Virus record (IMG/VR): IMGVR_UViG_3300032330_001471
Span: 1-27,195 of that record
Source of the DNA: a virus
Taxonomy: Duplodnaviria > Caudoviricetes
Strand: one strand, 5' to 3'
Length of the DNA stretch: 27,195 nt
Notes under the pieces: model-generated
Database searches by the model: none
What the model was told of the DNA's origin: nothing
What the model saw: only the letters and a program-made list of their open reading frames with translations
Translations under genes and position numbers: made by a program
Part shown: positions 1 through 26,379 of the stretch, in pieces
How the letters are laid out: each line of letters begins with the position of its first letter
Position numbering within the stretch: the stretch's first letter is position 1

Positions 1-3000
1 GCATCTTCTGGTGGTGCTGGCGGTAATGGGTCATCTTCATCAATTTCTGGTTCATCCGTAACTTATGCTGGCGGTGGTGGCGGTGGTTCAAATGGAGGAA
101 CTGCTGGCACAGGCGGTACAGGCGGTGGTGGAAATGGCTCAACTGGTGGTGGTGGAACCGCTTCTTCTGCAACTGCAAACACAGGCGGTGGCGGAGGCGG
201 TGGAGGCGGAAACATAGCCATTACTCCAGACAATGGAGGAGCTGGTGGCTCAGGCATTGTCATTATTTCTTATGCTGGCGCACAACAATTTGGTGGCGGT
301 GTCGTCACATCCGTGGGTGGTAACACTATCCACACCTTCAATACATCAGGTACGCTTTCCCCATTAAATCAATTGTCAGCAAGCTATTTAATCGTAGCTG
401 GTGGTGGTAGTGGTGGCTATAATGGTGGTGGAGGTGGAGCTGGGGGTTTATTAACTAGCTCTGGTTTGACTATTGACACCAACTCAACATACCTAGTAAC
501 CGTTGGTGCAGGTGGCACAGGAAACGGAACAAGGGCAGCAACAGGCGGTAATGGCGGTAATTCTTCTTTTAGTATTGTATCTACAGCAGCTGTAGGTGGT
601 GGTGGAGGTTCTGGAGATTTACTCGGAGCTGGTGCATCGGGCGGTTCTGGTGGTGGTGGAGCTAACTCTACAGGTGCTGGTGGCGCTGGAACTTCTTCAC
701 AAGGTAATGCTGGTGGCGCTGCTGGCGCTCTTGCAAGTACAACTGGAGGCGGTGGAGGCGCAAGCGCTGTAGGTGGAAGTGCATCCGTAACTACTGCTGG
801 TTCAGGTGGCGCTGGTACAGCATCTTCAATAAGCGGTTCTAGCGTTACTTACGCTGGTGGTGGTGGCGGTTATTGCGATAATTCTGGAACAGCTGGCACA
901 GGCGGTGCTGGTGGTGGTGGTAATGGTGGTAAAGGAAATACCACATCAGGAGTTGCTGGAACAACTAATTTAGGTAGTGGTGGAGGTGGTAATGGTATTG
1001 GTGGATCAGGAGCTAATGGCGGTTCAGGCATCGTAATCATTAGCTACGCTGGCTCTACTCAGCTCATGGCTGGCGGTTCAGTCACAATTACTGGTGGCTA
1101 TGTAATCCATACATTCACCTCAAGCGGATACTTAACACCTCTGACATTGGTTGGTAACTCTTTAAGATTCCGTGGCTCTGCTAACGGTTATTTATCACGC
1201 ACACCAACAGCAACAGCGACAAGTAATAAAATATTTACTATAGCATTTTGGTTCAAGCCTAGTTTAGCTCTTACAGTATCAAATGAAGCTTGGTATTTTG
1301 ATGCTTACAATCAAAGTTTTGGTTTGTATTTCAACATCAATTCAAAGCTCTCTTTACAGCTTACTGGCGGTGCTGGATACATTGTTCCAACACAGGTGGT
1401 GCGTGACCCTGCCGCTTGGTATCACATTGTTATTGCTGTAGATACAACTCAAGCAACTGCAAGTAACCGTATTAAGTATTACTTAAATGGCTTGCAAGTT
1501 ACTTCGTTTGTACAAGCTGATTATCCTGCTCAAAATACCACATACAACTGGAATCAAGCTGGTTCTGCTCAATATATTGGCACTAACTCTAATGCAACAA
1601 CCAGAAACTATGATGGTGAAATGACGCAGTTCTATTCCATTGATGGTCAACAATTAACACCAAACAGCTTCGGTACATTTAATAGCTACGGTGTATGGCA
1701 ACCTATCACCTACGGTGGTAGCTACGGTACTAATGGATTTTATTTGCCGTTTAGTCAAGGTTCGTCTACTTATGCTGGTAGCTTTAATGGTTCTAGTCAA
1801 TGGCTGACTTGGCCCGCAAACTTAACTTTTGGAACAAATAACTTTACCGTTGAGTGCTGGGTTTACTTTACAGGATTCCCAAATGCCGCTGGTGGTTTTG
1901 GGGCAACTCTTTTCCGTCAAGACCCAGCTACTGGTCGTACTGTTGATATTTTTGTTGAACAGTACAAACTTAAGTTTTATAGCCCAACAATCGGTGTTGA
2001 TGCATTTTTAGGCACTGAGACATTTACAACTGGTCAGTGGTATCACGTTGCTGTTGTTAAAAACGGAAATACAATAACTGGATATGTTAACGGAACAGCT
2101 TTAAGCTCTCCGCAAACAGGAAATGGTTCAAGCATTGGAACTATGGCTGTTGTTTCAACTGGTAAGGGTGATAACTATACTCAAGGATATGTTTCTAACT
2201 TGCGAGTTGTTAACGGTACTGCCGTTTACACAACCGCTTTTGTACCAACAACATCTCCGTTAACAAACATTTCCAATACAAATTCATTGATATTGCAAAG
2301 TGCAACAGTAATTGATAATAGCCCTAACGCTTGGACAATTACAAATAATGGTGGCGTAACAATGGCTGCCAATACAATTGTATTTGCTAATCCAAAGTCA
2401 TTGTGTGTTGACGCTGGTCCTGTAGGAAACAATTGGACACCAAATAATATTAGCAATAATACAAACTCAACCTACGACAGCATGACCGACGTCCCAACGC
2501 TGACTAGCGCAACTGTGGCTAACTATGCTGTGTTGAATCCGTTAGATGTAACAAGCCAAGGCGTAAGAAATGGTAATTTACAATGCTACGGAGCAGGTGC
2601 TTGGGGTCATAGACGCTCAACAATCCAAATGACAACAGGTTCTTGGTATTGGGAAGTTACTCCATCTTTCTCTGGCGGTAGCTACATATTTACTGGCGTT
2701 GTAACGCCTAGTGCAAGTTTATCTCAGTATGTTGGTCAAAATGCTAATGGTTGGGGTTTTAGTACCAATGATGGCACAATTGTTAATAATGGATCATCAA
2801 CAGCGTATGGTTCAGCCGTTGCGTCTGGAGTAGTAATTGGTGTAGCTTTTGATGCGGCTACAGGGAAGTTATATTTTAGAAATGCTTCTGGATGGTTTAA
2901 CTCTGGAAACCCAGCAACCGCTACAAACCCTGCCGTAACTATTGGCGCTGGCTCTTTCTTTGCTGCTGGTTCTGGATATGATTCTACAGACATCAATAAC

Positions 3001-3075
3001 TTTAACTTCGGTCAACAGCCATTTGCCTACACACCACCGTCAGGCTTCGTAGCCCTTAACACTTACAACCTATAA
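1..3075 (+). CDS. Tail fibre / receptor-binding-like virion protein, 5'-truncated: two Gly-rich repeats, two LamG/concanavalin A-like domains and a SPRY/B30.2-like domain
   Basis: Frame 1 is open from base 1, so the GTG at 313 in the ORF track is internal. Two copies of SISGSSVTYAGGGGG...GGSGIVIISY...IHTF; LamG motifs RDPAAWYHIVIAVDTT and FTVECWVY...WYHVAVV...GYVSNLRVV; SPRY motif GSWYWEV...IGVAFD...NFGQQPF. Confidence 0.8.
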   Translation, partial: ASSGGAGGNGSSSSISGSSVTYAGGGGGGSNGGTAGTGGTGGGGNGSTGGGGTASSATANTGGGGGGGGGNIAITPDNGGAGGSGIVIISYAGAQQFGGGVVTSVGGNTIHTFNTSGTLSPLNQLSASYLIVAGGGSGGYNGGGGGAGGLLTSSGLTIDTNSTYLVTVGAGGTGNGTRAATGGNGGNSSFSIVSTAAVGGGGGSGDLLGAGASGGSGGGGANSTGAGGAGTSSQGNAGGAAGALASTTGGGGGASAVGGSASVTTAGSGGAGTASSISGSSVTYAGGGGGYCDNSGTAGTGGAGGGGNGGKGNTTSGVAGTTNLGSGGGGNGIGGSGANGGSGIVIISYAGSTQLMAGGSVTITGGYVIHTFTSSGYLTPLTLVGNSLRFRGSANGYLSRTPTATATSNKIFTIAFWFKPSLALTVSNEAWYFDAYNQSFGLYFNINSKLSLQLTGGAGYIVPTQVVRDPAAWYHIVIAVDTTQATASNRIKYYLNGLQVTSFVQADYPAQNTTYNWNQAGSAQYIGTNSNATTRNYDGEMTQFYSIDGQQLTPNSFGTFNSYGVWQPITYGGSYGTNGFYLPFSQGSSTYAGSFNGSSQWLTWPANLTFGTNNFTVECWVYFTGFPNAAGGFGATLFRQDPATGRTVDIFVEQYKLKFYSPTIGVDAFLGTETFTTGQWYHVAVVKNGNTITGYVNGTALSSPQTGNGSSIGTMAVVSTGKGDNYTQGYVSNLRVVNGTAVYTTAFVPTTSPLTNISNTNSLILQSATVIDNSPNAWTITNNGGVTMAANTIVFANPKSLCVDAGPVGNNWTPNNISNNTNSTYDSMTDVPTLTSATVANYAVLNPLDVTSQGVRNGNLQCYGAGAWGHRRSTIQMTTGSWYWEVTPSFSGGSYIFTGVVTPSASLSQYVGQNANGWGFSTNDGTIVNNGSSTAYGSAVASGVVIGVAFDAATGKLYFRNASGWFNSGNPATATNPAVTIGAGSFFAAGSGYDSTDINNFNFGQQPFAYTPPSGFVALNTYNL
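31..1122 (+). repeat. Internal duplication of the Gly-rich module (protein-level repeat)
   Basis: SISGSSVTYAGGGGG at ~40-87 and ~826-870; GGSGIVIISYAG at ~244-279 and ~1018-1053; IHTF follows each copy. The copies differ mostly at synonymous positions, consistent with an old duplication. Confidence 0.75.
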
Positions 3076-3079
3076 GACT

Positions 3080-4150
3080 ATGCCAACAACATACGCAATC
3101 CCCAACGGTCGGACAGTAATGGATGCTACCCTGTATACGGGTAACGGCTATCCAACGGCAGGCACACAGTCTATTGTTAACTCTGACTTAGGCAGTGGTG
3201 GATTTAAGCCCGACTTTATTTGGATTAAACAAACAAATGGTGTTGGAAACCACACACTTACCGACTCAGTTCGTGGTACCAACAGTCAGTTATTTTCTGC
3301 CCAAACTGTTGCACAAGAAACTGTAACCGATGCCGTAACCGCATTTAACACAAATGGCTTTAGTTTAGGCTCAAACACACAAGGCACATTGCCATTTGTT
3401 AATACAAACAATCAAAGTTTTGTAGCATGGCAATGGCAAGCTGGACAAGGTACAACTTCATCAAATACCGCTGGTTCTCAAACAAGCACAGTAAGCGTTA
3501 ATGCTACCGCTGGATTTAGTATTGTTACTTTTACAGCTACTGGGGTAAATGTTAATGGTACAGTTGGTCATGGGCTTGGTGCTACACCAAGTTTAATTAT
3601 TGTAAAAAATAGTGCCTCAGCATCAAATTGGGTTGTTTATTCTTCTGCTGTGGTTACCAATGTAAACCAATTTTTAAGATTAAATGATACAAGTGCTTTG
3701 ATTACATTAAGCCAAGTGTGGGGCAGTACATTACCAACTTCTACGGTATTTGGAATTAGAGGTGATGTTACCGTTGCTGCTAGTACAGCTTGTGTAGCTT
3801 ATTGCTGGACACCTATAGCTGGCTTCTCCCAGTTTGGTAGCTACACAGGCAACGGCTCTTCTGATGGTCCATTTGTATATACAGGGTTTAGACCAGCGTT
3901 TATGCTTACCAAAAGAACAGATACCACTTCGGATTGGGTAATTATTGATACTTCTCGTGCGCCATATAATGCCGTTAGTCCATACATTGTTGTTAATACA
4001 AATGCCGCAGAAAATAATTACACAGGATGGGATTTATTATCTAATGGTATTAAATTAAGAAATACCGATGCTGGAATTAATGCTAATGGTGGTACTTATA
4101 TATACATGGCATTTGCCGAAAACCCTTTTAAATACGCTAACGCACGATAG
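3080..4150 (+). CDS. Tail-fibre-associated virion protein (beta-rich repeat module)
   Basis: Motifs LYTGNG, FKPDFIWIK, GFSIVT, HGLGATP, FGSYTGNG, GFRPAF and YIYMAFAENPF are typical of the module that follows SPRY domains in aquatic phage tail proteins. Confidence 0.7.
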   Translation: MPTTYAIPNGRTVMDATLYTGNGYPTAGTQSIVNSDLGSGGFKPDFIWIKQTNGVGNHTLTDSVRGTNSQLFSAQTVAQETVTDAVTAFNTNGFSLGSNTQGTLPFVNTNNQSFVAWQWQAGQGTTSSNTAGSQTSTVSVNATAGFSIVTFTATGVNVNGTVGHGLGATPSLIIVKNSASASNWVVYSSAVVTNVNQFLRLNDTSALITLSQVWGSTLPTSTVFGIRGDVTVAASTACVAYCWTPIAGFSQFGSYTGNGSSDGPFVYTGFRPAFMLTKRTDTTSDWVIIDTSRAPYNAVSPYIVVNTNAAENNYTGWDLLSNGIKLRNTDAGINANGGTYIYMAFAENPFKYANAR

Positions 4151-6039: not shown

Positions 6040-6454
6040 ACATTTCACTCTTGAAGAATTAACACACACTGACCACAGGGAGTTTAGTAATGAACCTAAC
6101 GAATCTGAAATTGAAAATATCAAGCGTCTTGCAGGGTTTCTTGAGCAAGTTAAAACAGCTTTGGGCGGTAAGCCTGTCATGGTTAACAGCGCGTTTCGGT
6201 CCAAAGAAGTAAACGACGCAGTCGGCTCTAAAGACAGCAGCCAACATCGCGTAGGTTGTGCAGCGGACATTCGTGTTCCAGGAATGACGCCAGACGAAGT
6301 AGTAAAAACGATCATGGCTTCTGATCTTCAATATGATCAAATTATTCGTGAATTTGATCGCTGGACACATATTAGTGTTCCGAACAAAAAAGATACCCCT
6401 GCTCGTAAACAAGCACTTATAATTGACAGAACAGGAACAAGGGCTTACTCATGA
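6026..6454 (+). CDS. Endolysin, peptidase M15 family (Zn peptidase)
   Basis: HFTLEEL, SAFRS..VN.AVG, SQH..GCAAD and WTHIS supply the His/Asp/His zinc ligands. Confidence 0.85.
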   Translation: MNLTEHFTLEELTHTDHREFSNEPNESEIENIKRLAGFLEQVKTALGGKPVMVNSAFRSKEVNDAVGSKDSSQHRVGCAADIRVPGMTPDEVVKTIMASDLQYDQIIREFDRWTHISVPNKKDTPARKQALIIDRTGTRAYS

Positions 6455-7083
6455 CAGTCTCATTCGTACTCACATATGACTCGTTGACTACAACTGTGTT
6501 ACAGTATCTGGAGCGTAACGACCCAGCTACAGTAAACCAGATTCCGACTTTCATTACGATGTGTGAGTTTGAGATTTCACAGCAAATAAAAACGCTAGGT
6601 CAGATGCAAGTTGTTGAAAGCACGATGTTAGCAGGAAACCCTGTTATTCAAAAGCCTGCTCGCTGGCGCAAAACAGTCTCATTTAATGTAGTCGTAAACG
6701 GATCTCGTCAGCCTGTTTATTTGAGAAAATACGAATATCTTAAATCTTACACACCTAATTCTTCAACAACAGGTATTCCTCTTTATTATGGTGATTATGA
6801 CTATGAACATTGGACCGTAGCTCCAACACCTAGTCAAAATTACGATTTTGAAGTTTTATTTTATGAGCGTATCGCTCCTCTATCTACTGAGAATCAAACA
6901 AACTGGCTAACGCAGTACGCGCCTAACGCGATGTTATTTGGAACTCTATTACAAGCAATGCCGTTTTTAAAAAACGATCAACGCGTAATATTTCAACAGA
7001 AATATGATCAAGCGATGCAGATGTTGAAAACAGAAGATATTGTGCGCATTGCTGACCGTCAAGCTATTGCTATCGAAAGTTAA
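6451..7083 (+). CDS. Head-tail adaptor/connector protein
   Basis: TYDSL...YL.R.D....IPTFI..., P.YY, APTP, NWL...PN.ML.G.L..A..FLKND; size and position match podoviral adaptors; ATGA overlap with the endolysin. Confidence 0.65.
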   Translation: MTVSFVLTYDSLTTTVLQYLERNDPATVNQIPTFITMCEFEISQQIKTLGQMQVVESTMLAGNPVIQKPARWRKTVSFNVVVNGSRQPVYLRKYEYLKSYTPNSSTTGIPLYYGDYDYEHWTVAPTPSQNYDFEVLFYERIAPLSTENQTNWLTQYAPNAMLFGTLLQAMPFLKNDQRVIFQQKYDQAMQMLKTEDIVRIADRQAIAIES

Positions 7084-10389: not shown

Positions 10390-10751
10390 CACCATCAGAA
10401 ATTATACAAGCGGATGCGCAAGCCAGAGGCTATGATGCCGATGCTGTGCTTAGGAAAATAGCGAAAGTTGTTAAGTCGGGCGCAGGATTGCTCTTACAAG
10501 AAGGTAATTCTTTATTGCTTCTTATAGGACTTGAAGGAAATAACGCTGAACTTCATCTTTATACCGCGGATAAATCTCCTTTAACTATTTACAAAGCTAT
10601 TACAAAATTTGTTAGCAAAATTCGTGAATCTGATTTGAATGCGGTTTACGGTAGCGGTGATGTTCCCGACCTTTTGCAAATGTTGAAAAAACTAGACGTA
10701 GACGTTCAATCGTCTGACATTCCTGGTTATAAATGGATGGCTCCAGTATGA
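10386..10751 (+). CDS. Hypothetical protein (position of P22 gp14 / T7 gp13-like proteins)
   Basis: Start moved to ATG 10386, which gives an ATGA overlap. Function is inferred from synteny only. Confidence 0.5.
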   Translation: MTPSEIIQADAQARGYDADAVLRKIAKVVKSGAGLLLQEGNSLLLLIGLEGNNAELHLYTADKSPLTIYKAITKFVSKIRESDLNAVYGSGDVPDLLQMLKKLDVDVQSSDIPGYKWMAPV

Positions 10752-12400
10752 GATATACATTAGACTCAATGCTTCCACTCGGTGCTTTTGAGCACTGCGG
10801 TAATGGTAAAATACGTCTTCATGGAGGTGGTGGAGGCGGTTTTATTGAAGACATTGGCAATTTTGTCAGTGATACTTTTCAAGGTGCAAGTGACATGTTG
10901 TCACAAATTGATCCAGGTCCAACAATTGGAAATGTAGGCGAAGAAATTGACAAAGGCGTTAATAATGCAGTTCCTGGTGGTTGGGGAACTGTAGCTGCTG
11001 CAACCGTAGCAGTACTAACTGCTAATCCTGAAATTTTAGCTGCTGCTCTTCCTGAGGAAGCTGCTGCATTGACGACTGAAGAAATTCTAGCGTCTCAATT
11101 TGGTGATGCTGCATTTCAATTGTCTCCTGAATTTTCAGCTCTTGCACCAGATGCAGCTGCTGAAGCGTTAGCTAATGGAGAAATATCAGGTTTAACATCT
11201 AACGCGACAGACATGATGTTGAACGGGAATCCGTCACTTAATCCGATTGATTTAGCGAATGCCTCTGTTGATCCGATTCAAACTTTGAACGCAGCCAACA
11301 ATTGGACTGGACCGATGACTCAAAACATTGGGCAGATTGCTACTGACATGGCTGCTCAAGGTATTCCTTCTGATGTTATCGCTAATCAGTTAATGCAGAA
11401 TTATGGCATTGATCAATATGCAGCTGCAAATGCTGCAGGAATTGCGACAGCAGGTGGTTCTGTATCAGATATTGCTTCAACTTTAGCGTCTGATTATGGC
11501 GCTAATATGACAGGTCTTGAAGCCTCATCAGCTTCAGCGCCATTAGGTCTTAAAGATGTATTGAACGCTGCTAATACCGCGCGTCAAGTATATGGGTTAG
11601 GTAAAACAGCAGCGAATATTTTAAACCCTTCAAACGCATTAAGAACATCTTCAACAGCACCAAAAAGTGGGTTATCAGGTGTAACAGGTTTATCAGATAT
11701 ACTTGGAGGTTCAAGTTCTTCTGGTGGTAGCGGTGCACTTCCAGGAAATTTACAAGCTACATCGTTAGCTGCAGCTCCAGTAACACAAGGAAATTCAAAT
11801 ATGAATTTAAATCAATTAAAACAACTCTACCCACAACTCTCAACTGTTGACCCGCGCGTATTAAGCGCATTGACAGGAAAAACTAATTCGACTCCAAATT
11901 ATTACTCTTATGGGTCTGGTCAAGGCGGTGGTCCAACTGGGCTCTCTTTACAAGGTCAAGGCGGTACTCCTTCTGCTGGATATCCTGCTCGAGCAGCTGA
12001 CGAAAAAGCTACTTCTACTGGTTTTTCTAGACCTACAAGTTCAAATGCAAGTTATAATGCGTTAGCTTCAGCTGGTTTATCCTCGTTGAATTCAGGTTCT
12101 TTACCAATGACTTTTAAAGATGGCGGTGATGTTCATATTCCACAGTTTAAAACAGGAACTACAGGGCATTTCGTCCAAGGTCAAGGCGACGGTCAATCAG
12201 ATGATATCCCTGCTATGCTCGCTGATGGAGAGTATGTTTTTGATGCCGATACGGTTGCAGCACTTGGTAATGGATCTTCTAAAGCAGGTGCGCTTCAGTT
12301 GGATAAAATGAGAAAAGCGATACGTAAACACAAACGAGCTGCATCTGTTGATAAAATTCCACCTAAAGCTAAATCACCTTTAGAATATTTGAAAGGTTAA
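10748..12400 (+). CDS. Probable ejection/pilot (internal virion) protein
   Basis: Start moved to ATG 10748 (ATGA overlap). N-terminal leader ends RLHGGGGGG; Ala/Gly/Ser-rich body; C-terminal G.GDGQSDDIPAMLADGEYV motif. Confidence 0.6.
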   Translation: MRYTLDSMLPLGAFEHCGNGKIRLHGGGGGGFIEDIGNFVSDTFQGASDMLSQIDPGPTIGNVGEEIDKGVNNAVPGGWGTVAAATVAVLTANPEILAAALPEEAAALTTEEILASQFGDAAFQLSPEFSALAPDAAAEALANGEISGLTSNATDMMLNGNPSLNPIDLANASVDPIQTLNAANNWTGPMTQNIGQIATDMAAQGIPSDVIANQLMQNYGIDQYAAANAAGIATAGGSVSDIASTLASDYGANMTGLEASSASAPLGLKDVLNAANTARQVYGLGKTAANILNPSNALRTSSTAPKSGLSGVTGLSDILGGSSSSGGSGALPGNLQATSLAAAPVTQGNSNMNLNQLKQLYPQLSTVDPRVLSALTGKTNSTPNYYSYGSGQGGGPTGLSLQGQGGTPSAGYPARAADEKATSTGFSRPTSSNASYNALASAGLSSLNSGSLPMTFKDGGDVHIPQFKTGTTGHFVQGQGDGQSDDIPAMLADGEYVFDADTVAALGNGSSKAGALQLDKMRKAIRKHKRAASVDKIPPKAKSPLEYLKG

Positions 12401-20235: not shown

Positions 20236-21996
20236 TTATAAATACTTACTAGCGCCAATGTCTTTGACAGTTTTTATTATAGCTTGAAAATACCAATCAA
20301 AGTTCAAATCTTGGGGAATATTTTTTGGCAAAGTCATGCATGCTTTTGCGCCATCAGTCTTAGCAACTTTGTTTCCGTTAGTAGCATAAACGATCGGAGG
20401 TAACTGCTCTGTGGTTTGATACCAACGAACCACTCTGCCCAAATACTGATCATCTTGAACTCCACCGCCAGTCACATTTCTAACACTGATGAAATCATTA
20501 AGCGAAGCACTCTTGAGAGTTTCCTCAAAAGAAGTTCCATTAGCCAGCCAATTAGCAACTGCCATAGAAACGACAGGCGCAGTTGGGTTCTTGCTTAATG
20601 TTGGTGCGCTGTAAATACCTTTTATTTTGACACTACGATCTCCTTTCACCGCGTAATAATTATTAACATCTTTCAGAGCTACACAACGATACGGAGTAGC
20701 TTCAAAAATAAATCCTGTTTTCTCGCTGAACTGCTTGATGATGTTGTCAACGACTGGTTGCCCATACTTACGATAATAGAGCATGATTCCGTCAGTATTC
20801 GCTGAGACGACTTCAATTTTATGATACTCAAGAATCTCAATTAAATTCAATAAAGTCAACTGTCCTGTCAAAGTAATGTTAATCATTACGTCTGGCGAGT
20901 AGAGCGGAGAGAACTTGTTCGCGGTCTTACCAAAAGTTCCGTTCAGAGCGATTCGTAATGAATCCGCGATGACCATATTCTTAGCGCGCTTGCCTTCCAA
21001 TCGTCTGTGGAATACTTTACGATACTCTTCAAGAAACTTTACTCCTGTGTTCATGGGTATGAGGTTTCCGTTAAGCATAATCGCAGGGTAATACGAAGCT
21101 ACATCATAATCAACTACGCAGAACTCATCGTCAGAGATATGACAAATCTTTCTGTCGTGCTGAGAATGAAGACCGCCTACACCCATCTGATAAACACCCT
21201 TCCCAATCTTAACGAGATCGTCCTTCAAGAAGTCTGGTAGATCAACGTGACCACTTTCCTTTACGTCAAACTGATGCGCTTCCATACGTGCTTTAAGGTC
21301 TCTCAGCTCAGGTGATCTGAACTCAATAAACTCAGGTGCTTTATATCTTACGAACGGAGGAATCTTAGGTTCTTTTCGCTTGAGACCCAGCTTCTTGACG
21401 AACATTTGTTCAGCTACTTGAGAGTCTGACTTAGAACGAGCGTCAAATCCATACTCTTTGCTGATTTCAACGCGCAACTGCAACTGACCTTGAAGGCGAT
21501 TATAGAGCTCTGCCGTAGTGTCTAAGTCGTTATGACAATATTTCAATACGATATCAAAGTCGTCATCCGCGATGATAGAGTCGTGATGAAATGGTAAGTC
21601 TTGAATGACAGGCATATTCATACGAGCGCCATATGTTTTCAAACTAACAAAACTGGGCGCGACTTCAATAATATCAATATGATCAACCATTGGAATTTTG
21701 AAACCATATTCTTTCTCCGCTTGCCACGGCATCAGGTTTTCCTGAATGATTTTATCGCCCAATGCTTTCGCTTCAAGCGTAGTCTTCCCTGTCATGAAAT
21801 ATGAGATGACTGGCATGTCGTATCGGTTTCCGTTGAAAGTAACGAAAGTATTATTTGACTTCATCAATTCTTTTAATCGTTCGCAAGCATCTTCCTGATG
21901 ACCCCAAATGTGAAAGCGGTCACCAGTCTCAAGAATCAATCCGCAGAGCAGAAACAGATTTTTAAACACTTCGGTATCGATTACGATTGTTTTCAT
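20236..21996 (-). CDS. polB: Family B DNA polymerase with 3'-5' exonuclease
   Basis: ExoI DTE, ExoII FNGNRYD, ExoIII YCHND; motif A DVASYYP, motif B RIALNGTFGK, motif C NTDG; DVNNY and KG. Confidence 0.9.
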   Translation of the reverse strand: MKTIVIDTEVFKNLFLLCGLILETGDRFHIWGHQEDACERLKELMKSNNTFVTFNGNRYDMPVISYFMTGKTTLEAKALGDKIIQENLMPWQAEKEYGFKIPMVDHIDIIEVAPSFVSLKTYGARMNMPVIQDLPFHHDSIIADDDFDIVLKYCHNDLDTTAELYNRLQGQLQLRVEISKEYGFDARSKSDSQVAEQMFVKKLGLKRKEPKIPPFVRYKAPEFIEFRSPELRDLKARMEAHQFDVKESGHVDLPDFLKDDLVKIGKGVYQMGVGGLHSQHDRKICHISDDEFCVVDYDVASYYPAIMLNGNLIPMNTGVKFLEEYRKVFHRRLEGKRAKNMVIADSLRIALNGTFGKTANKFSPLYSPDVMINITLTGQLTLLNLIEILEYHKIEVVSANTDGIMLYYRKYGQPVVDNIIKQFSEKTGFIFEATPYRCVALKDVNNYYAVKGDRSVKIKGIYSAPTLSKNPTAPVVSMAVANWLANGTSFEETLKSASLNDFISVRNVTGGGVQDDQYLGRVVRWYQTTEQLPPIVYATNGNKVAKTDGAKACMTLPKNIPQDLNFDWYFQAIIKTVKDIGASKYL

Positions 21997-22241
21997 TGAC
22001 TAACGTAGGCAGAGCTGGCATCTTCGCCAGAGTCTTGATTAGAATTGACGACCTCGATATATTTCTCAAGGAAATGCTGCGCTTTCAACAAGTCAGTGAT
22101 TCCGTTCTTATTTTTCCAACGCGTCACATATTTAGTGATTTGACCTTGAAAATAATCAAGATCATTCGCTACGACGTAATCCCAATGTTCTATCGTTGAT
22201 TTGTAATGATTGCCTGCTACTTGCTTTTCATTCGCTTTCAT
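21993..22241 (-). CDS. DUF3310 (SaV-like / T7 gp1.7-related) protein, possible nucleotide kinase
   Basis: QVAGNHYK, G..TKYV.RWK.KNG..DL.KA..FL. Confidence 0.8.
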   Translation of the reverse strand: MKANEKQVAGNHYKSTIEHWDYVVANDLDYFQGQITKYVTRWKNKNGITDLLKAQHFLEKYIEVVNSNQDSGEDASSAYVSQ

Positions 22242-22431
22242 TTGTGATCCTTTCTTCTTGCGCCTTTTTAAAAGCTATGACTGTTTCTAAATCCGCTATT
22301 TGATCTGCTTGATTTTTTATGACCCAAGCAGCAGTAGCCACATTTTCAGAGCCAGCAATCGCCTTGTCTTGCATATCGTTAAATAGCTTGTCAAGATCTT
22401 TTACAAATAATTCTATGTCAAAGTGTTTCAT
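22228..22431 (-). CDS. Hypothetical protein (67 aa)
   Basis: Start moved to ATG 22431, an ATGA overlap with the hydroxymethylase stop; SD AAGGG. Confidence 0.55.
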   Translation of the reverse strand: MKHFDIELFVKDLDKLFNDMQDKAIAGSENVATAAWVIKNQADQIADLETVIAFKKAQEERITNESE

Positions 22432-23402
22432 TTTGTATCCCTTCTCATGATCCATTGTTGAACTGCAATTTTCCAATCAGAAGCCATAATCTGATTCGCG
22501 TAGACTGCTCCGTTGCTAATTTTATTTCTGCGGTCATAACTTACTTGAGCCATTGGCTTCGCTACATATCTAAAGAACTCATTCTTATAGTCATAATCAG
22601 ATATAGGTGCTTCACAGAATACTTCGCATTCCTCTAAAAACCTTTCCCAATTTCCGTAGTAAAGATCGAGTGGCTCAACTGTGCCAGTAGAGTAGTAATC
22701 AAAATCTTCAGATGAAGTTGGTGGTTGCATCATAATCGGAATCGCATCATACAGCTTCGTGTAAAGATGAAGATTATTTGAAACAGTGTAGTAATTACCT
22801 ACAGGAATACCTAGAGCGATAGCAATGAACTCTTGAATAATTGAGAAGTGAACAGGGTTAGCACCGCAGTATCCCCACCAGAAATCATTTGAGCGATTCG
22901 TGATCATCATGTCAAGACGACCATTCACAATTGAGAACATTACAGAAGTATTGCACGCTTTGTCAAGAGTGCTCTTGTTGAAGTCAGCAGTGTCCCAGAG
23001 TTGCATCACAGCCTGACGAGAGTTCGGATTGAGCTCAAGATGTTCAATGATTGCTTTCAATTGATCAAAGCCAAACTGATGGCGTATCCTGTAACCATAC
23101 GGAGCATTGAATCGCTCTCCGTCATCGCTGAACTGACCGATCTTTGAATTGAACTGTTGTAAGAACGCTACGTCATTACGACCAGCGAGCATCCAAATAC
23201 TTTCCATCAGATGAAAGATTGGGTTAGCATCGCGCTTTCCGTAGAACAGAACACGCTCAATCGGATTTTGAATCTTAGTCAAGACTGGTTCATCAATGCG
23301 ATACGCTTCACCATTTCTAGTTTGAGTTAACGTACCACAAGTTTTGAATCGCCAGAGTCCTTCTACGAAGAGGTTATTTACGTTTATTGCGGTTATTTCC
23401 AT
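22428..23402 (-). CDS. Thymidylate synthase-family dUMP hydroxymethylase (5-hmdUMP synthase)
   Basis: SRQAV..LWD, catalytic Cys in DKACN, RSNDFWWG..GAN.VHFS (Asn at the position that specifies dUMP) and NNLHLY. Start moved to ATG 23402 (SD GGGAG). Next to hypermodification genes. Confidence 0.8.
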   Translation of the reverse strand: MEITAINVNNLFVEGLWRFKTCGTLTQTRNGEAYRIDEPVLTKIQNPIERVLFYGKRDANPIFHLMESIWMLAGRNDVAFLQQFNSKIGQFSDDGERFNAPYGYRIRHQFGFDQLKAIIEHLELNPNSRQAVMQLWDTADFNKSTLDKACNTSVMFSIVNGRLDMMITNRSNDFWWGYCGANPVHFSIIQEFIAIALGIPVGNYYTVSNNLHLYTKLYDAIPIMMQPPTSSEDFDYYSTGTVEPLDLYYGNWERFLEECEVFCEAPISDYDYKNEFFRYVAKPMAQVSYDRRNKISNGAVYANQIMASDWKIAVQQWIMRRDTK

Positions 23403-23403
23403 T

Positions 23404-24261
23404 TTAAAACTCCCACGTTGGTCTATAAGTCTGCTTAGGTTTTCCTTCATTGAATTTGACTCGCAGATATTTATCAAACTCACACATCACATTCTGAACA
23501 TCGTGAAGAGTTAAATCTTCAAACTCTTGATTAGATGAGATAATTTTTTCTCTAGCTTCAACCAATTCATCAGTGAACTGACTCTTCACGACTGACGCTT
23601 TCAAAGCTCTTTCATGAAGTCGATTGAGACCGCGTTGACTTCCTGGACCTTTGGGCGCGTAAGTATATAAATCTTTCGCGGTAAGTAATTGACCCATGAT
23701 ATATGTCAAATCAGCAGAGACTTGTCCAGCGATGAACGTCTTTATCCCAAAGCAAGTAGCCAGAGTGTCAGTAACGAGTTCAATAGAGTTCTGTTCTATT
23801 GCTTGACGAATGTTTTCAGCTTTTTCTGATAGAGGCGCGATGATATGCTTACTCATATTTTGAGATTTTGTTCCTTCGATACGAGTTGGATAAACTACGT
23901 ATGCGCTAGTGAACATTTTGATATTGCGCTCTTTGAGTTCCTCTAAACATTTGATGAAATAGTCAACGTCAAACTCTTCAACGCGGTGAGGTATTGCATC
24001 TTTCTCAAGAAGATATTTCAGAGTCGGTGGCCAATTTATCAAACGAGCAATCATGGACTTAAACCAAACATCACCAATATTGTTGGTATAGTAATGCTGA
24101 AGAAGCCAACGAGTAACGCGGTCATCTTTCCTACGAACATTACAAAAACGATATTTATTCAAAATCTCATTTTGAGTATATGGTTGGTGTCCCGCTTCTT
24201 TGTTCTTACGAATCAATTCGCGTTCATTCACGAACTCAATCAAATATTCATAGAGTGCCAT
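23404..24261 (-). CDS. aGPT-Pplase1 family / 5-hmdU DNA kinase helical-domain protein
   Basis: ERE.IR..K..G..P.T...IL..YRFCNVRR.DDRVT, R.INW, GPGS.RGL and QN..CEFDKY. Start moved to ATG 24261. Confidence 0.82.
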   Translation of the reverse strand: MALYEYLIEFVNERELIRKNKEAGHQPYTQNEILNKYRFCNVRRKDDRVTRWLLQHYYTNNIGDVWFKSMIARLINWPPTLKYLLEKDAIPHRVEEFDVDYFIKCLEELKERNIKMFTSAYVVYPTRIEGTKSQNMSKHIIAPLSEKAENIRQAIEQNSIELVTDTLATCFGIKTFIAGQVSADLTYIMGQLLTAKDLYTYAPKGPGSQRGLNRLHERALKASVVKSQFTDELVEAREKIISSNQEFEDLTLHDVQNVMCEFDKYLRVKFNEGKPKQTYRPTWEF

Positions 24262-24838
24262 TTTCAGCTTTCTTAAAGATGTCAAGAGTCTGATTGAATG
24301 CATCAGTATGATCAATGGTAACGACAGTGACACCGCCCATCTCGTGGAGGTTCTTGCACGCAGCATAAGTAGACTTGTGCGCGCTAATCGTATTTTCAGG
24401 ATTGAATGGTCGCTCGTCGCCTCTTTCTTTCCTGCGTGCAAGAACTCGGTCAAGACAAACCTCAAGCGGAGTGTCTAAATATGCTGCAACGTAAGCACCA
24501 GTCGGCTTCAACATTTGCGTAGTGATCGCATTGGGTCCAACTTTGCTTAACAATAATCCTTCTAACAAGACGTGCCCACGAGGATGAGCAGCAAGGGCGC
24601 GGTCTGCGATCTCTTCTTGCGTGCTGATGCCGTCAGTTCCACCGCAAGTGTTCTCGTAAGAGCCAATGACATATAGCTTCTCTTTGATACCTTCGCTTGA
24701 CAGGTCAACTTCGTATCCCCAATGTTTCTTTTTGTTTGGGTCAGGAAGAACCTTGACTGGGTAGTCAGTAATGAATTTGCGAGCGACAGTAGTCTTACCA
24801 GAGCCTGAAGTCCCACGTAGTGAAAGTATCGCGTTCAT
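24248..24838 (-). CDS. P-loop kinase, candidate 5-hmdU DNA kinase catalytic domain
   Basis: LRGTSGSGKTT Walker A, G.Y...CGGTD, EG, and LDTPLEVCL.RV..RR lid. Start moved to ATG 24838. Flanked by aGPT-Pplase genes. Confidence 0.75.
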   Translation of the reverse strand: MNAILSLRGTSGSGKTTVARKFITDYPVKVLPDPNKKKHWGYEVDLSSEGIKEKLYVIGSYENTCGGTDGISTQEEIADRALAAHPRGHVLLEGLLLSKVGPNAITTQMLKPTGAYVAAYLDTPLEVCLDRVLARRKERGDERPFNPENTISAHKSTYAACKNLHEMGGVTVVTIDHTDAFNQTLDIFKKAENGTL

Positions 24839-24865
24839 TTCTCTTGTGCCTTTCTTAGTATTGCT
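24835..24865. repeat. 31-bp direct repeat, copy 1
   Basis: tcatttctcttgtgcctttcttagtattgct; 29/31 identical to 25049-25079. Confidence 0.9.
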
Positions 24866-25052
24866 CTTGGGATTCATGGAAACCAAACTTATTCACCCAC
24901 ATTAAATTTCTTTCGTTGCAAGTTACTCGCACTTCACCTTGCGTATAAACCCAAATAGTCTTTGGCTTTAAAAATTCACGCAAATGTCTTGTTTGTTCTT
25001 TGCGATACAACTCTGTTTGCCTTAATTCTGCAAATGTTATTGTGTCTTTCAT
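24855..25052 (-). CDS. Hypothetical protein (65 aa) within the repeat-bounded cassette
   Basis: Its ATG lies in repeat copy 2 and its stop in repeat copy 1. Confidence 0.55.
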   Translation of the reverse strand: MKDTITFAELRQTELYRKEQTRHLREFLKPKTIWVYTQGEVRVTCNERNLMWVNKFGFHESQEQY

Positions 25053-25079
25053 TTATCTTGCGCCTTTCTTAGTATTGCT
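25049..25079. repeat. 31-bp direct repeat, copy 2
   Basis: tcatttatcttgcgcctttcttagtattgct; on the - strand it encodes AILRKAQDK-stop plus the next gene's ATG. Confidence 0.9.
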
Positions 25080-25378
25080 TTAGCAAATTCGATGAACCCA
25101 ACAGTTTTCATGCTGTGTCCGCAAGGAACTTCATCAATATATTCTTGATGTAATTCCCATATTTCCTCATCTGTTAGCTCTTTTATTGCTGGCACTTCTT
25201 GCCAAACTGGTTTGAAATTAGCCAATGGGTCATCTGTTGGTTCTTTTACTGGATGGGTATAGAGTGGTGTAGTAATGCCCATGTTATCCACTTTGTTTTC
25301 TGAAACACAATCCGCTAAATACAATGCCTCATCCTTAAACCTATCCAAGTTAATCCACGCTACTGGTTCATTGTTCAT
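25049..25378 (-). CDS. Hypothetical phage protein (EPVAW...PLYTHP...LTDEEI...FAKAI type)
   Basis: Recognisable mosaic small-ORF motifs; ATGA overlaps at both ends; SD GGAG. Confidence 0.7.
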   Translation of the reverse strand: MNNEPVAWINLDRFKDEALYLADCVSENKVDNMGITTPLYTHPVKEPTDDPLANFKPVWQEVPAIKELTDEEIWELHQEYIDEVPCGHSMKTVGFIEFAKAILRKAQDK

Positions 25379-26379
25379 ATTTTCTCCAATAGATACTCAC
25401 CACGAAAAGGTTTTCCTGTTTCAGCGAACATGCTAGCTTTGATCTTACGAGGGACGACCTTTTCCTCGCATTCTTCCCTAAGCCAGTCAGGTAGATGCTG
25501 CGCACGAATTGCTTTGAATGGTTCTGTATATTTTTCCATATTACGATTATCATACCACTTGATTCTATCCCAGCCCATATCCGCATAAACTCCTGGATAC
25601 CGACGACTAAAAAATCCATTCTTGAACTGACACAAACAAGACTCAAGAGTAAACTTTGAAGTATGTAAATTATAACCGTACTCTTCTGTGAACTCACGAA
25701 TAAATTTATCAGCTTTATTTTCCAACATTATGCACGTGTCTTCAAAATATGGATACTTTCCATCGTGTGAGTTTGGCTGGCGCTTATCAAACACCAACTC
25801 ATCTCTACCTAGCAGAAAGAACATGCCATTACGATGCGAACGAGAACCATCAAAGTCATTGAACATTAATGATGTGCAATCTGCTCCGTAACCATTAATT
25901 TGAATATATTCTAAATATGAAAATGTTGAAAGACGACCAAAACTTCTAATGGAATTAGCAACTTCCCAACACTCCATATAAGTTCTACCTGACCAGAGCT
26001 CGACTTGCGGTCTATGGTTGACCAACTCAGCGTAAGAGTAAAGACCGAGCAGAGTATCTTTCTTCTGCTTGTTGCGGTCAGTATCAAAAGAGAGGTTAGC
26101 CCATTCCGCATTGAATATCTCATCAGCTTTTTTCCATTCCGCTTTGCTCATCTCGGGAGAGGGCATAAACTCAAGGATCTTCAGAGAGGTAATAGGGTTT
26201 TGGGTATGACCATTGATTGTAGCAAACCAGAGAGCTGTCTCGTCATCCCAGTCGTAGTATTTTCTGAGCTCAGGTAAATACATATAGACGAGTCCAGGAT
26301 GAATTCTGAAAACTAGATTCAAATTGTAGAGGGACTTGAAATAGTCCATCCTGTTTTCAGGTTTGCGATAGTCAATCAT
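25375..26379 (-). CDS. Amino acid:DNA transferase (aGPT-Pplase2/ADDT family), thymidine hypermodification
   Basis: DYR..ENR, LW....G, F.TD, FGR.S.F.YLE (HhH-like), GSRSHRNG, and LESCLC.FK....RYPG.Y.D. Confidence 0.8.
   Translation of the reverse strand: MIDYRKPENRMDYFKSLYNLNLVFRIHPGLVYMYLPELRKYYDWDDETALWFATINGHTQNPITSLKILEFMPSPEMSKAEWKKADEIFNAEWANLSFDTDRNKQKKDTLLGLYSYAELVNHRPQVELWSGRTYMECWEVANSIRSFGRLSTFSYLEYIQINGYGADCTSLMFNDFDGSRSHRNGMFFLLGRDELVFDKRQPNSHDGKYPYFEDTCIMLENKADKFIREFTEEYGYNLHTSKFTLESCLCQFKNGFFSRRYPGVYADMGWDRIKWYDNRNMEKYTEPFKAIRAQHLPDWLREECEEKVVPRKIKASMFAETGKPFRGEYLLEKI

Follow-up and report, generated by a model that had tools for sequence, protein, structure and literature searches.

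The pathway by which Salmonella phage ViI makes 5-(2-aminoethoxy)methyldeoxyuridine (5-NeOmdU) comprises two kinases (gp67 and gp243), a serine:DNA transferase (gp247) and a pyridoxal phosphate (PLP) decarboxylase (gp226), as outlined in the accessible text of PMC8989533. The same text identifies the P-loop proteins M6 gp54 and PaMx11 gp49 as kinases acting on 5-hydroxymethyldeoxyuridine (5-hmdU) in DNA, and the clade 2 aGPT-Pplases as the transferases, in which an active-site Cys and a nearby Glu are essential. Tailoring enzymes described in the accessible portions of PMC8989533 and PMC13458397 are PLP decarboxylases, radical S-adenosylmethionine (SAM) isomerases, flavin lyases and acetyltransferases. 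Here, we describe a predicted thymidine hypermodification locus in a 27,195-base virus record of an uncultured phage (IMGVR_UViG_3300032330_001471; this whole stretch is called the window), compared with relatives labelled L### (loci) and G### (genomes). The type of system is known; what sets this one apart is the donor pocket of its transferase and a swap between a decarboxylase and a predicted methyltransferase among its close relatives.

All five pathway genes named in the original prediction, which was made from the sequence alone, lie with intact frames on the minus strand within 21993-26379 (Table 1). The amino-acid:DNA transferase (AADT), aGPT-Pplase1, the thymidylate synthase (TS)-fold enzyme and the DUF3310 protein score above their Pfam cut-offs. 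The kinase alone falls below (PF18748, 21.5 bits, cut-off 27) and is backed by homology, with 35% blastp identity to PaMx11 gp49, a proven kinase likewise under the cut-off at 18.1 bits, and 31% to M6 gp54; its reading frame opens with ATG at 24838 rather than with TTG at 24886. The name "terminase small subunit" given to the 5-hmdU DNA kinase family by phrog_800 and RefSeq is an annotation error that masks the pathway. The window's aGPT-Pplase1 has a conserved CEFDKY motif and 29% identity to M6 gp55, a homologue that was dispensable according to the accessible text of PMC8989533.

Sequence comparison supports the TS-fold enzyme as a dUMP hydroxymethylase. It aligns over its full length with M6 gp58 and PaMx11 gp51 at 39-40% identity (blastp), with E-values of ~1e-77 to 1e-83 for the M6/PaMx11 enzymes, 8e-21 for CMP hydroxymethylase and 6e-13 at best for ThyA, and it matches 428 of 50,697 phage records at E 1e-20, M6-like phages leading. 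The predicted catalytic Cys and dUMP-type Asn are both present at the sequence level; the Asn stands in a GANPVHF motif, at the position of Asp in CMP hydroxymethylase, and the RSND motif resembles the RAND of CMP hydroxymethylase, unlike the RSAD of ThyA. The DUF3310 protein (52% identity to M6 gp61 over 62 aa) is a possible nucleotide kinase, judging from PHROG labels and from the link between DUF3310 and T7 gp1.7. Replacement of thymidine may be only partial, since no dCMP deaminase was found in 3/3 related genomes (G001-G003) and an HD nucleotidase of the M6 type is absent from the nearest relatives.

The AADT carries the catalytic set E246/S247/C250, invariant in 117/117 aligned homologues in an alignment that took in 116 of the 120 matches listed. 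These residues align with E243/T244/C247 of YuA and E222/T223/C226 of 15599, catalytic residues shown to be essential in the accessible text of PMC8989533 and PMC13458397; in the latter, E222/T223/C226 form the catalytic set and G227/H230/D238 determine the donor in a cluster-specific way. The window's AADT has 27% identity to ViI gp247, with shared FDTD and FGRLS motifs, and gave no blastp match to M6 gp51 or PaMx11 gp46 at E 0.01. Its nearest cultured relatives are Mycobacterium phage JAMaL gp3 and Glutamicibacter phage Montesquieu MONT_42 (34-37%). The AlphaFold model (predicted local distance difference test score, pLDDT, 96) has as its top Foldseek match in the Protein Data Bank (PDB) PaMx11 gp46 (8Z2M; template modelling scores 0.59/0.67), at a weak E-value of 0.017; that structure is reported in PMC11472151, as far as its accessible text goes. 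In a 32-row tree, the AADT falls on the ViI side: it lies within a 24-row clade (support 97/99) that is sister to ViI gp247 and apart from the glycine and diamine enzymes, in a tree with a long-branch warning for ViI and the outgroups. Fig. 2 of PMC8989533 and Supplementary Fig. S6B of PMC13458397 may include members of this clade. Homologues from the window's side of the family (36-37%) also occur on long contigs of Acidobacteriota metagenome-assembled genomes (L107, L108 and L112).

The AADT's specificity positions read Q251/N254/R260, versus K/S/Y in glycine, W/K/R in serine and G/H/D in diamine enzymes. The ViI pocket W288/K291/R299 is not matched, in an alignment at 27% identity; the glycine-binding K159, K248 and Y257 of YuA are replaced by S154, Q251 and R260; and the diamine pocket G227/H230/D238 is not present. 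Both R259 and R260 are invariant among the aligned homologues. Relatives with an identical pocket carry a PLP decarboxylase resembling ViI gp226 (36% identity), and for this reason the donor probably has an alpha-carboxylate.

Virion genes occupy the plus strand and replication genes the minus strand throughout the window. The locus had been predicted to be co-oriented and translationally coupled directly upstream of PolB. Its placement holds, with DUF3310 and PolB sharing a 4-nt ATGA overlap; the coupling holds for the most part, but three small unannotated open reading frames (ORFs) break the chain. From an upstream 90-aa ORF to the polymerase, 7 of the 9 junctions overlap by 4 nt or 14 nt and the others are short gaps (1 nt between aGPT-Pplase1 and the TS-fold gene, 16 nt ahead of the kinase). 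Further ATGA overlaps of 4 nt join AADT to the 109-aa ORF, the 109-aa to the 65-aa ORF and the TS-fold gene to the 67-aa ORF, and 14-nt overlaps join the kinase to aGPT-Pplase1 and the 67-aa ORF to DUF3310. The 67-aa ORF occupies the position held by the HD nucleotidase in M6, PaMx11 and P26218, and the gene content of the AADT-kinase gap differs among relatives. The order AADT-kinase-Pplase1-TS-(DUF3310)-PolB is seen again in relatives, and its kinase-Pplase1-TS core is ordered as in M6 and PaMx11, which argues that the grouping is not due to chance.

Table 1. Features of the window, and of related genomes where a locus label is given, with the basis of each assignment.
Feature	Position	Strand	Basis or remark
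Amino-acid:DNA transferase (aGPT-Pplase2/AADT)	25375..26379	-	PF18724, 44.6 bits (cut-off 26.2)
Small ORF, 109 aa	25049..25378	-	No Pfam/PHROG match; variable insert between AADT and kinase
Small ORF, 65 aa	24855..25052	-	No Pfam/PHROG match; variable insert
Repeat of 32 nt, two copies, 94% identical	24834-24865, 25048-25079		Ribosome-binding-like purine run and ATGA stop/start
Predicted 5-hmdU DNA kinase (5-HMUDK, P-loop)	24248..24838	-	Homology; shared P-loop/EG/LDTP motifs
aGPT-Pplase1 (Pfam HMUDK_hel), helical AADT paralogue	23404..24261	-	PF18723, 139.6 bits, E 1.7e-40
Predicted dUMP hydroxymethylase, TS fold	22428..23402	-	PF00303; Cys, RSND, Asn and HxY motifs
Small ORF, 67 aa	22228..22431	-	No match when read from upstream start
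DUF3310 protein, possible 5-hmdUMP kinase	21993..22241	-	PF11753; PHROG "nucleotide kinase" families
DNA polymerase PolB	20236..21996	-	B-type exonuclease profile, phrog_1252
SU10-type adaptor	6451-7083	+	PF24175, E 1.3e-22; solved adaptor 7Z47
Nozzle-like protein, 611 aa	8312-10147	+	PDB nozzle chains 8ZKK/8ZKM, E 4e-6
Large ORF (G001)	L028:6096-11738		
Large ORF (G002)	L031:10416-14057		
Large ORF (G003)	L034:17893 into L035:3299		

The assignment to post-replicative thymidine hypermodification (Lee et al. 2021) is thus backed by profiles, catalytic residues, fold and synteny, and on sequence grounds we consider the core pathway highly probable. In it, the TS-fold enzyme would make 5-hmdUMP, as its orthology to M6 gp58 and its Asn and RSND motifs suggest; the DUF3310 protein together with host kinases would raise this to the triphosphate, which PolB would build into new DNA, probably replacing only some of the thymidine. 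The P-loop kinase, by homology to the proven enzymes, would then phosphorylate 5-hmdU in the polymer to 5-phosphomethyldeoxyuridine (5-PmdU). Finally, C250 of the AADT would attack C6, assisted by a metal site at E246/S247, and the phosphate would leave as the donor joins the exocyclic methylene; this mechanism is published for homologues, and its residues are present in the window's AADT. The likely purpose, by analogy, is protection from host nucleases: the anti-restriction role is deduced from accounts, to which the accessible text of PMC13458397 refers, that the DNA of M6, ViI and phiW-14 is resistant.

What happens to the base thereafter may depend on a gene that lies past the end of the window. 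The sequence ends 816 bases upstream of AADT, partway through an ORF. L008, the nearest relative (AADT 91%), has that ORF immediately downstream of a gene for a 245-aa protein. That gene sits upstream of AADT in the nearest relatives L008, L009, L010, L012 and L043-L052, and its slot there corresponds to a point ~0.5 kb past the window's end. The protein has no Pfam or PHROG match. Its model (pLDDT 93) folds like a class I SAM methyltransferase, and RNA methyltransferases rank among its top Foldseek matches; it shows the Rossmann-type fold, motif I is rich in glycine, an acidic residue follows strand 2, and Atlas features agree. In run X1, a possible source of the window, a 5098-nt contig of similar depth (9.2 vs 9.0-10.1) has the same gene order and includes, besides the upstream genes, codons 1-100 of the methyltransferase gene. 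Presence of the gene in this phage is likely.

Among 41 loci gathered with AADT and kinase seeds, several of which are the same contig and many of which are short upstream, the methyltransferase without a visible PLP gene is found on 5 distinct contigs, a PLP gene without the methyltransferase on 12, and neither gene on 2 whose upstream flanks are long. Whole-record search of the complete G003 (54.8 kb) found the methyltransferase and no PLP enzyme; the reverse holds for G002, G007, G008 and G009, which are near-complete or complete. No PLP gene was found in the window, itself a fragment, in G001 (73% complete, AADT 91%) or in G003. With the methyltransferase as seed, core hypermodification genes lie nearby in 33 of 44 loci (which include duplicates of the contigs from the first set) and in 12 of 16 clusters at 90% identity; the 4 clusters lacking them have <1.1 kb of downstream sequence. 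These neighbourhoods span TS-based and TET-based operons, with the order PLP-methyltransferase-AADT-kinase-Pplase1-TS in a marine-type group, AADT-methyltransferase-PLP-kinase in L080 and TET-AADT-methyltransferase in L082. The only homologue in 50,697 phage records is gp39 of cyanophage Pam3 (L005:5604-6230), ~3 kb from and upstream of an M6-type cluster, and the sole one from a cultured phage. In L012 (2468-3049) a 2-oxoglutarate (2OG)-Fe(II) oxygenase gene is inserted between AADT and kinase, and L065 has one directly before the methyltransferase; this may be a further tailoring step.

On these grounds, an amino acid is the likely donor, one that by descent would resemble serine but is received by a different pocket, and its carboxyl group would be kept. 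Without a PLP decarboxylase, the methyltransferase-fold protein encoded beyond the window would then probably methylate the free amine, a likelier target than the carboxylate because the gene co-occurs with decarboxylases and is found in Pam3, where the predicted base bears a primary amine but lacks a carboxyl group. This full chain, leading to an amino-acid-thymine adduct that keeps its carboxyl and is possibly N-methylated, we put forward tentatively, at somewhat below an even chance. The original prediction had allowed for new chemistry; the distinct AADT clade and the exchange of decarboxylase for methyltransferase in the nearest relatives, past the window's end, favour this, with the product itself still a prediction. 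The finished base may be undescribed, since the AADT branch is separate from the proven enzymes and relatives swap the decarboxylase for a predicted methyltransferase.

Several observations weigh against this chain. The AADT's fold match is weak, the kinase scores under its profile cut-off, and the pocket mapping relies on an alignment of <30% identity that is unsure near residues 257-265. No contig joining the methyltransferase gene to the window was seen, and in L065 it stands with 7 kb on either side free of core genes. In L013, with 75% AADT identity, a PLP enzyme takes the methyltransferase's place, and past L008 the grouping of the window with methyltransferase carriers is supported at only 90/87. 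The co-occurrence counts are not independent, as they come mostly from related phages and from searches seeded inside the cluster.

The same core pathway could end in a bare amino-acid adduct (O-Ser-T or another), with the methyltransferase absent or acting elsewhere, on adenine or cytosine in DNA or on a small molecule. We regard this ending as possible though unlikely. The missing join and the isolated gene of L065 speak for it, as does L105, which has neither tailoring gene in the ~8 kb upstream of AADT and no methyltransferase in a 73%-complete record; motif I of the 245-aa protein also resembles that of DNA amino-methyltransferases. Tight linkage of the methyltransferase in several operon types, including L080 and L082, argues the other way. 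So does its motif IV: of 35 rows, 34 read DFPx(F/M) and the remaining one EFPTF, and none has DPPY, the canonical motif IV of Dam-like DNA adenine methyltransferases. The DFP motif occupies the position of the D/N-PP-Y/F motif of amino-methyltransferases. The ~60 residues between motifs I and IV leave no room there for a Dam-type recognition domain, and no Dam-like enzyme is among the Foldseek matches listed.

A second alternative, that the base is the known 5-NeOmdU of ViI, made from serine with a PLP decarboxylase that either the host or the unseen half of the genome would provide, appears improbable. PLP genes are missing from both G001 and the complete G003, and the pocket is Q/N/R rather than W/K/R, against which stand the sister position of AADT to ViI gp247, the gp226-like enzyme of the close relatives L013, G002 and L086-L093, and the window's extent of about half a genome. 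It is about as improbable that the AADT takes a ready-made amine or alcohol, such as ethanolamine, a diamine or another metabolite, so that no decarboxylase is needed: phiW-14 and SH-Ab 15599 use diamines directly and two substitutions in the pocket can redirect the diamine family to another donor (both from the accessible text of PMC13458397), but this AADT lacks the acidic G/H/D set, has two invariant arginines and shares an identical pocket with relatives that keep the decarboxylase. Also improbable is little or no hypermodified base, with the TS-fold enzyme a thymidylate synthase, as databases label its family, or with the pathway stopping at 5-hmdU: the absences of dCMP deaminase and HD nucleotidase noted above fit, but the genes have unbroken frames that many relatives conserve, and the enzyme is far nearer those of M6/PaMx11 and CMP hydroxymethylase than ThyA.

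Compared with ViI (Ackermannviridae), the window has an AADT on the ViI side and relatives with a gp226-like enzyme, whereas the pocket differs and the nearest complete relative has a methyltransferase-fold gene and no PLP gene; ViI is also a 157-kb myovirus, while this lineage has a compact operon in a roughly 55-kb genome of short-tail type. The order kinase-Pplase1-TS-DUF3310-polymerase is shared with M6/YuA (5-(2-aminoethyl)deoxyuridine, 5-NedU) and PaMx11 (5-acetylaminomethyldeoxyuridine, 5-AcNmdU), which among proven systems have the closest kinase, Pplase1 and TS-fold enzyme. Unlike them, the window lacks the glycine-binding K/Y residues and the HD nucleotidase, and its polymerase is B-type rather than A-type. 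No tblastn match to M6 gp52/gp53 (radical-SAM/PLP) or PaMx11 gp47/gp48 (flavin adenine dinucleotide, FAD, lyase/acetyltransferase) was found in G001-G003, and a scan of 30 window proteins likewise showed no homologue of the radical-SAM, FAD or acetyltransferase types. With phiW-14 (Delftia) and SH-Ab 15599 (Acinetobacter) the window shares the Glu-Thr/Ser-Cys site and, on the main reading, would like them complete its modification without a decarboxylase; those enzymes stand in the other half of the AADT tree, and their acidic diamine pocket is missing here. JAMaL (Coopervirus) gp3 and Montesquieu MONT_42 belong to the same AADT clade, with a similar pocket (T/S/R), but JAMaL pairs its AADT with a TET/JBP enzyme and Montesquieu with a PLP enzyme; no literature report of the modified base of either was found.

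A podovirus-like layout had also been proposed, and the adaptor and nozzle matches agree with it; SU10 and VP1 are podophages. The same layout is found in the complete G003 (terminal repeats), where no tube or sheath family was detected among the ORFs scanned (38 against Pfam and 25 against PHROGs, a part of the total). Against a short tail, residues 456-531 (76 aa) of the ejection-like protein at 10733-12400 match a tape-measure PHROG; the N-terminal part of this protein is conserved in relatives, in which its length ranges from 555 to 1069 aa. The phages tabulated in the accessible text of PMC5889632 are all myo- or siphoviruses. Rhodoferax phage P26218 has a short tail by transmission electron microscopy (accessible text of PMC4657236), and its gp14-gp18 encode AADT, kinase, TS-fold enzyme, HD and DUF3310. 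The short tail is consequently an under-reported setting and not a first one. P26218, a freshwater phage, resembles the window in clustering its genes for AADT, kinase, TS-fold enzyme and DUF3310, but its AADT is M6-side, its polymerase A-type, and it has an HD nucleotidase and no Pplase1 among gp14-gp18. Its minimal cluster (L004:9773-13265) has a V/Q/Y AADT pocket, unlike the glycine enzymes, and the accessible text of PMC4657236 makes no mention of DNA modification in this phage.

Further features were seen in the window and its relatives. Positions 1-4150 encode a glycine-rich fibre-like protein with laminin-G and SPRY domains, followed by a DUF7483 protein. An unannotated ORF of 1,200-1,900 aa lies between the terminase large subunit and portal genes in G001, G002 and G003 (Table 1). 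The 32-nt repeat bounds the small ORFs of the AADT-kinase gap, and in metagenomes many unrelated contigs pile up on it; it possibly serves as a common recombination module for small genes. A PLP enzyme-AADT fusion of 711/712 aa stands beside TET/JBP and ParB genes in L067 (289-2424) and L068 (542-2680). A CHASE2 adenylate/guanylate cyclase is encoded on the phage-like contigs L065 (10896-14482) and L072 (8559-9680), the former adding curlin-repeat and FecR genes.

It is conceivable, if doubtful as a whole, that thymidine hypermodification in this lineage includes an added SAM-dependent methylation step, with three modular outcomes from one AADT clade. If so, a decarboxylase alone would give an amine like 5-NeOmdU; a decarboxylase with the methyltransferase would give an N-methylated, up to choline-like, ether; and the methyltransferase alone, as in the nearest kin, would give an amino-acid-thymine with N-methylation, at most a betaine-like zwitterion. 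A literature search that left subscription journals largely uncovered found no methyltransferase tailoring step, no methylated base and no donor for this AADT clade. The methyltransferase and an AADT clade with a distinct pocket would add to the known DNA bases and provide a new type of enzyme, one transferring methyl groups to an already modified base within the DNA chain. Cultured stand-ins for the lineage exist in Pam3, Montesquieu, P26218 and JAMaL-type phages, and the decarboxylase/methyltransferase swap among close relatives would be a natural test of whether modification-dependent nucleases drive chemical diversification of phage DNA.

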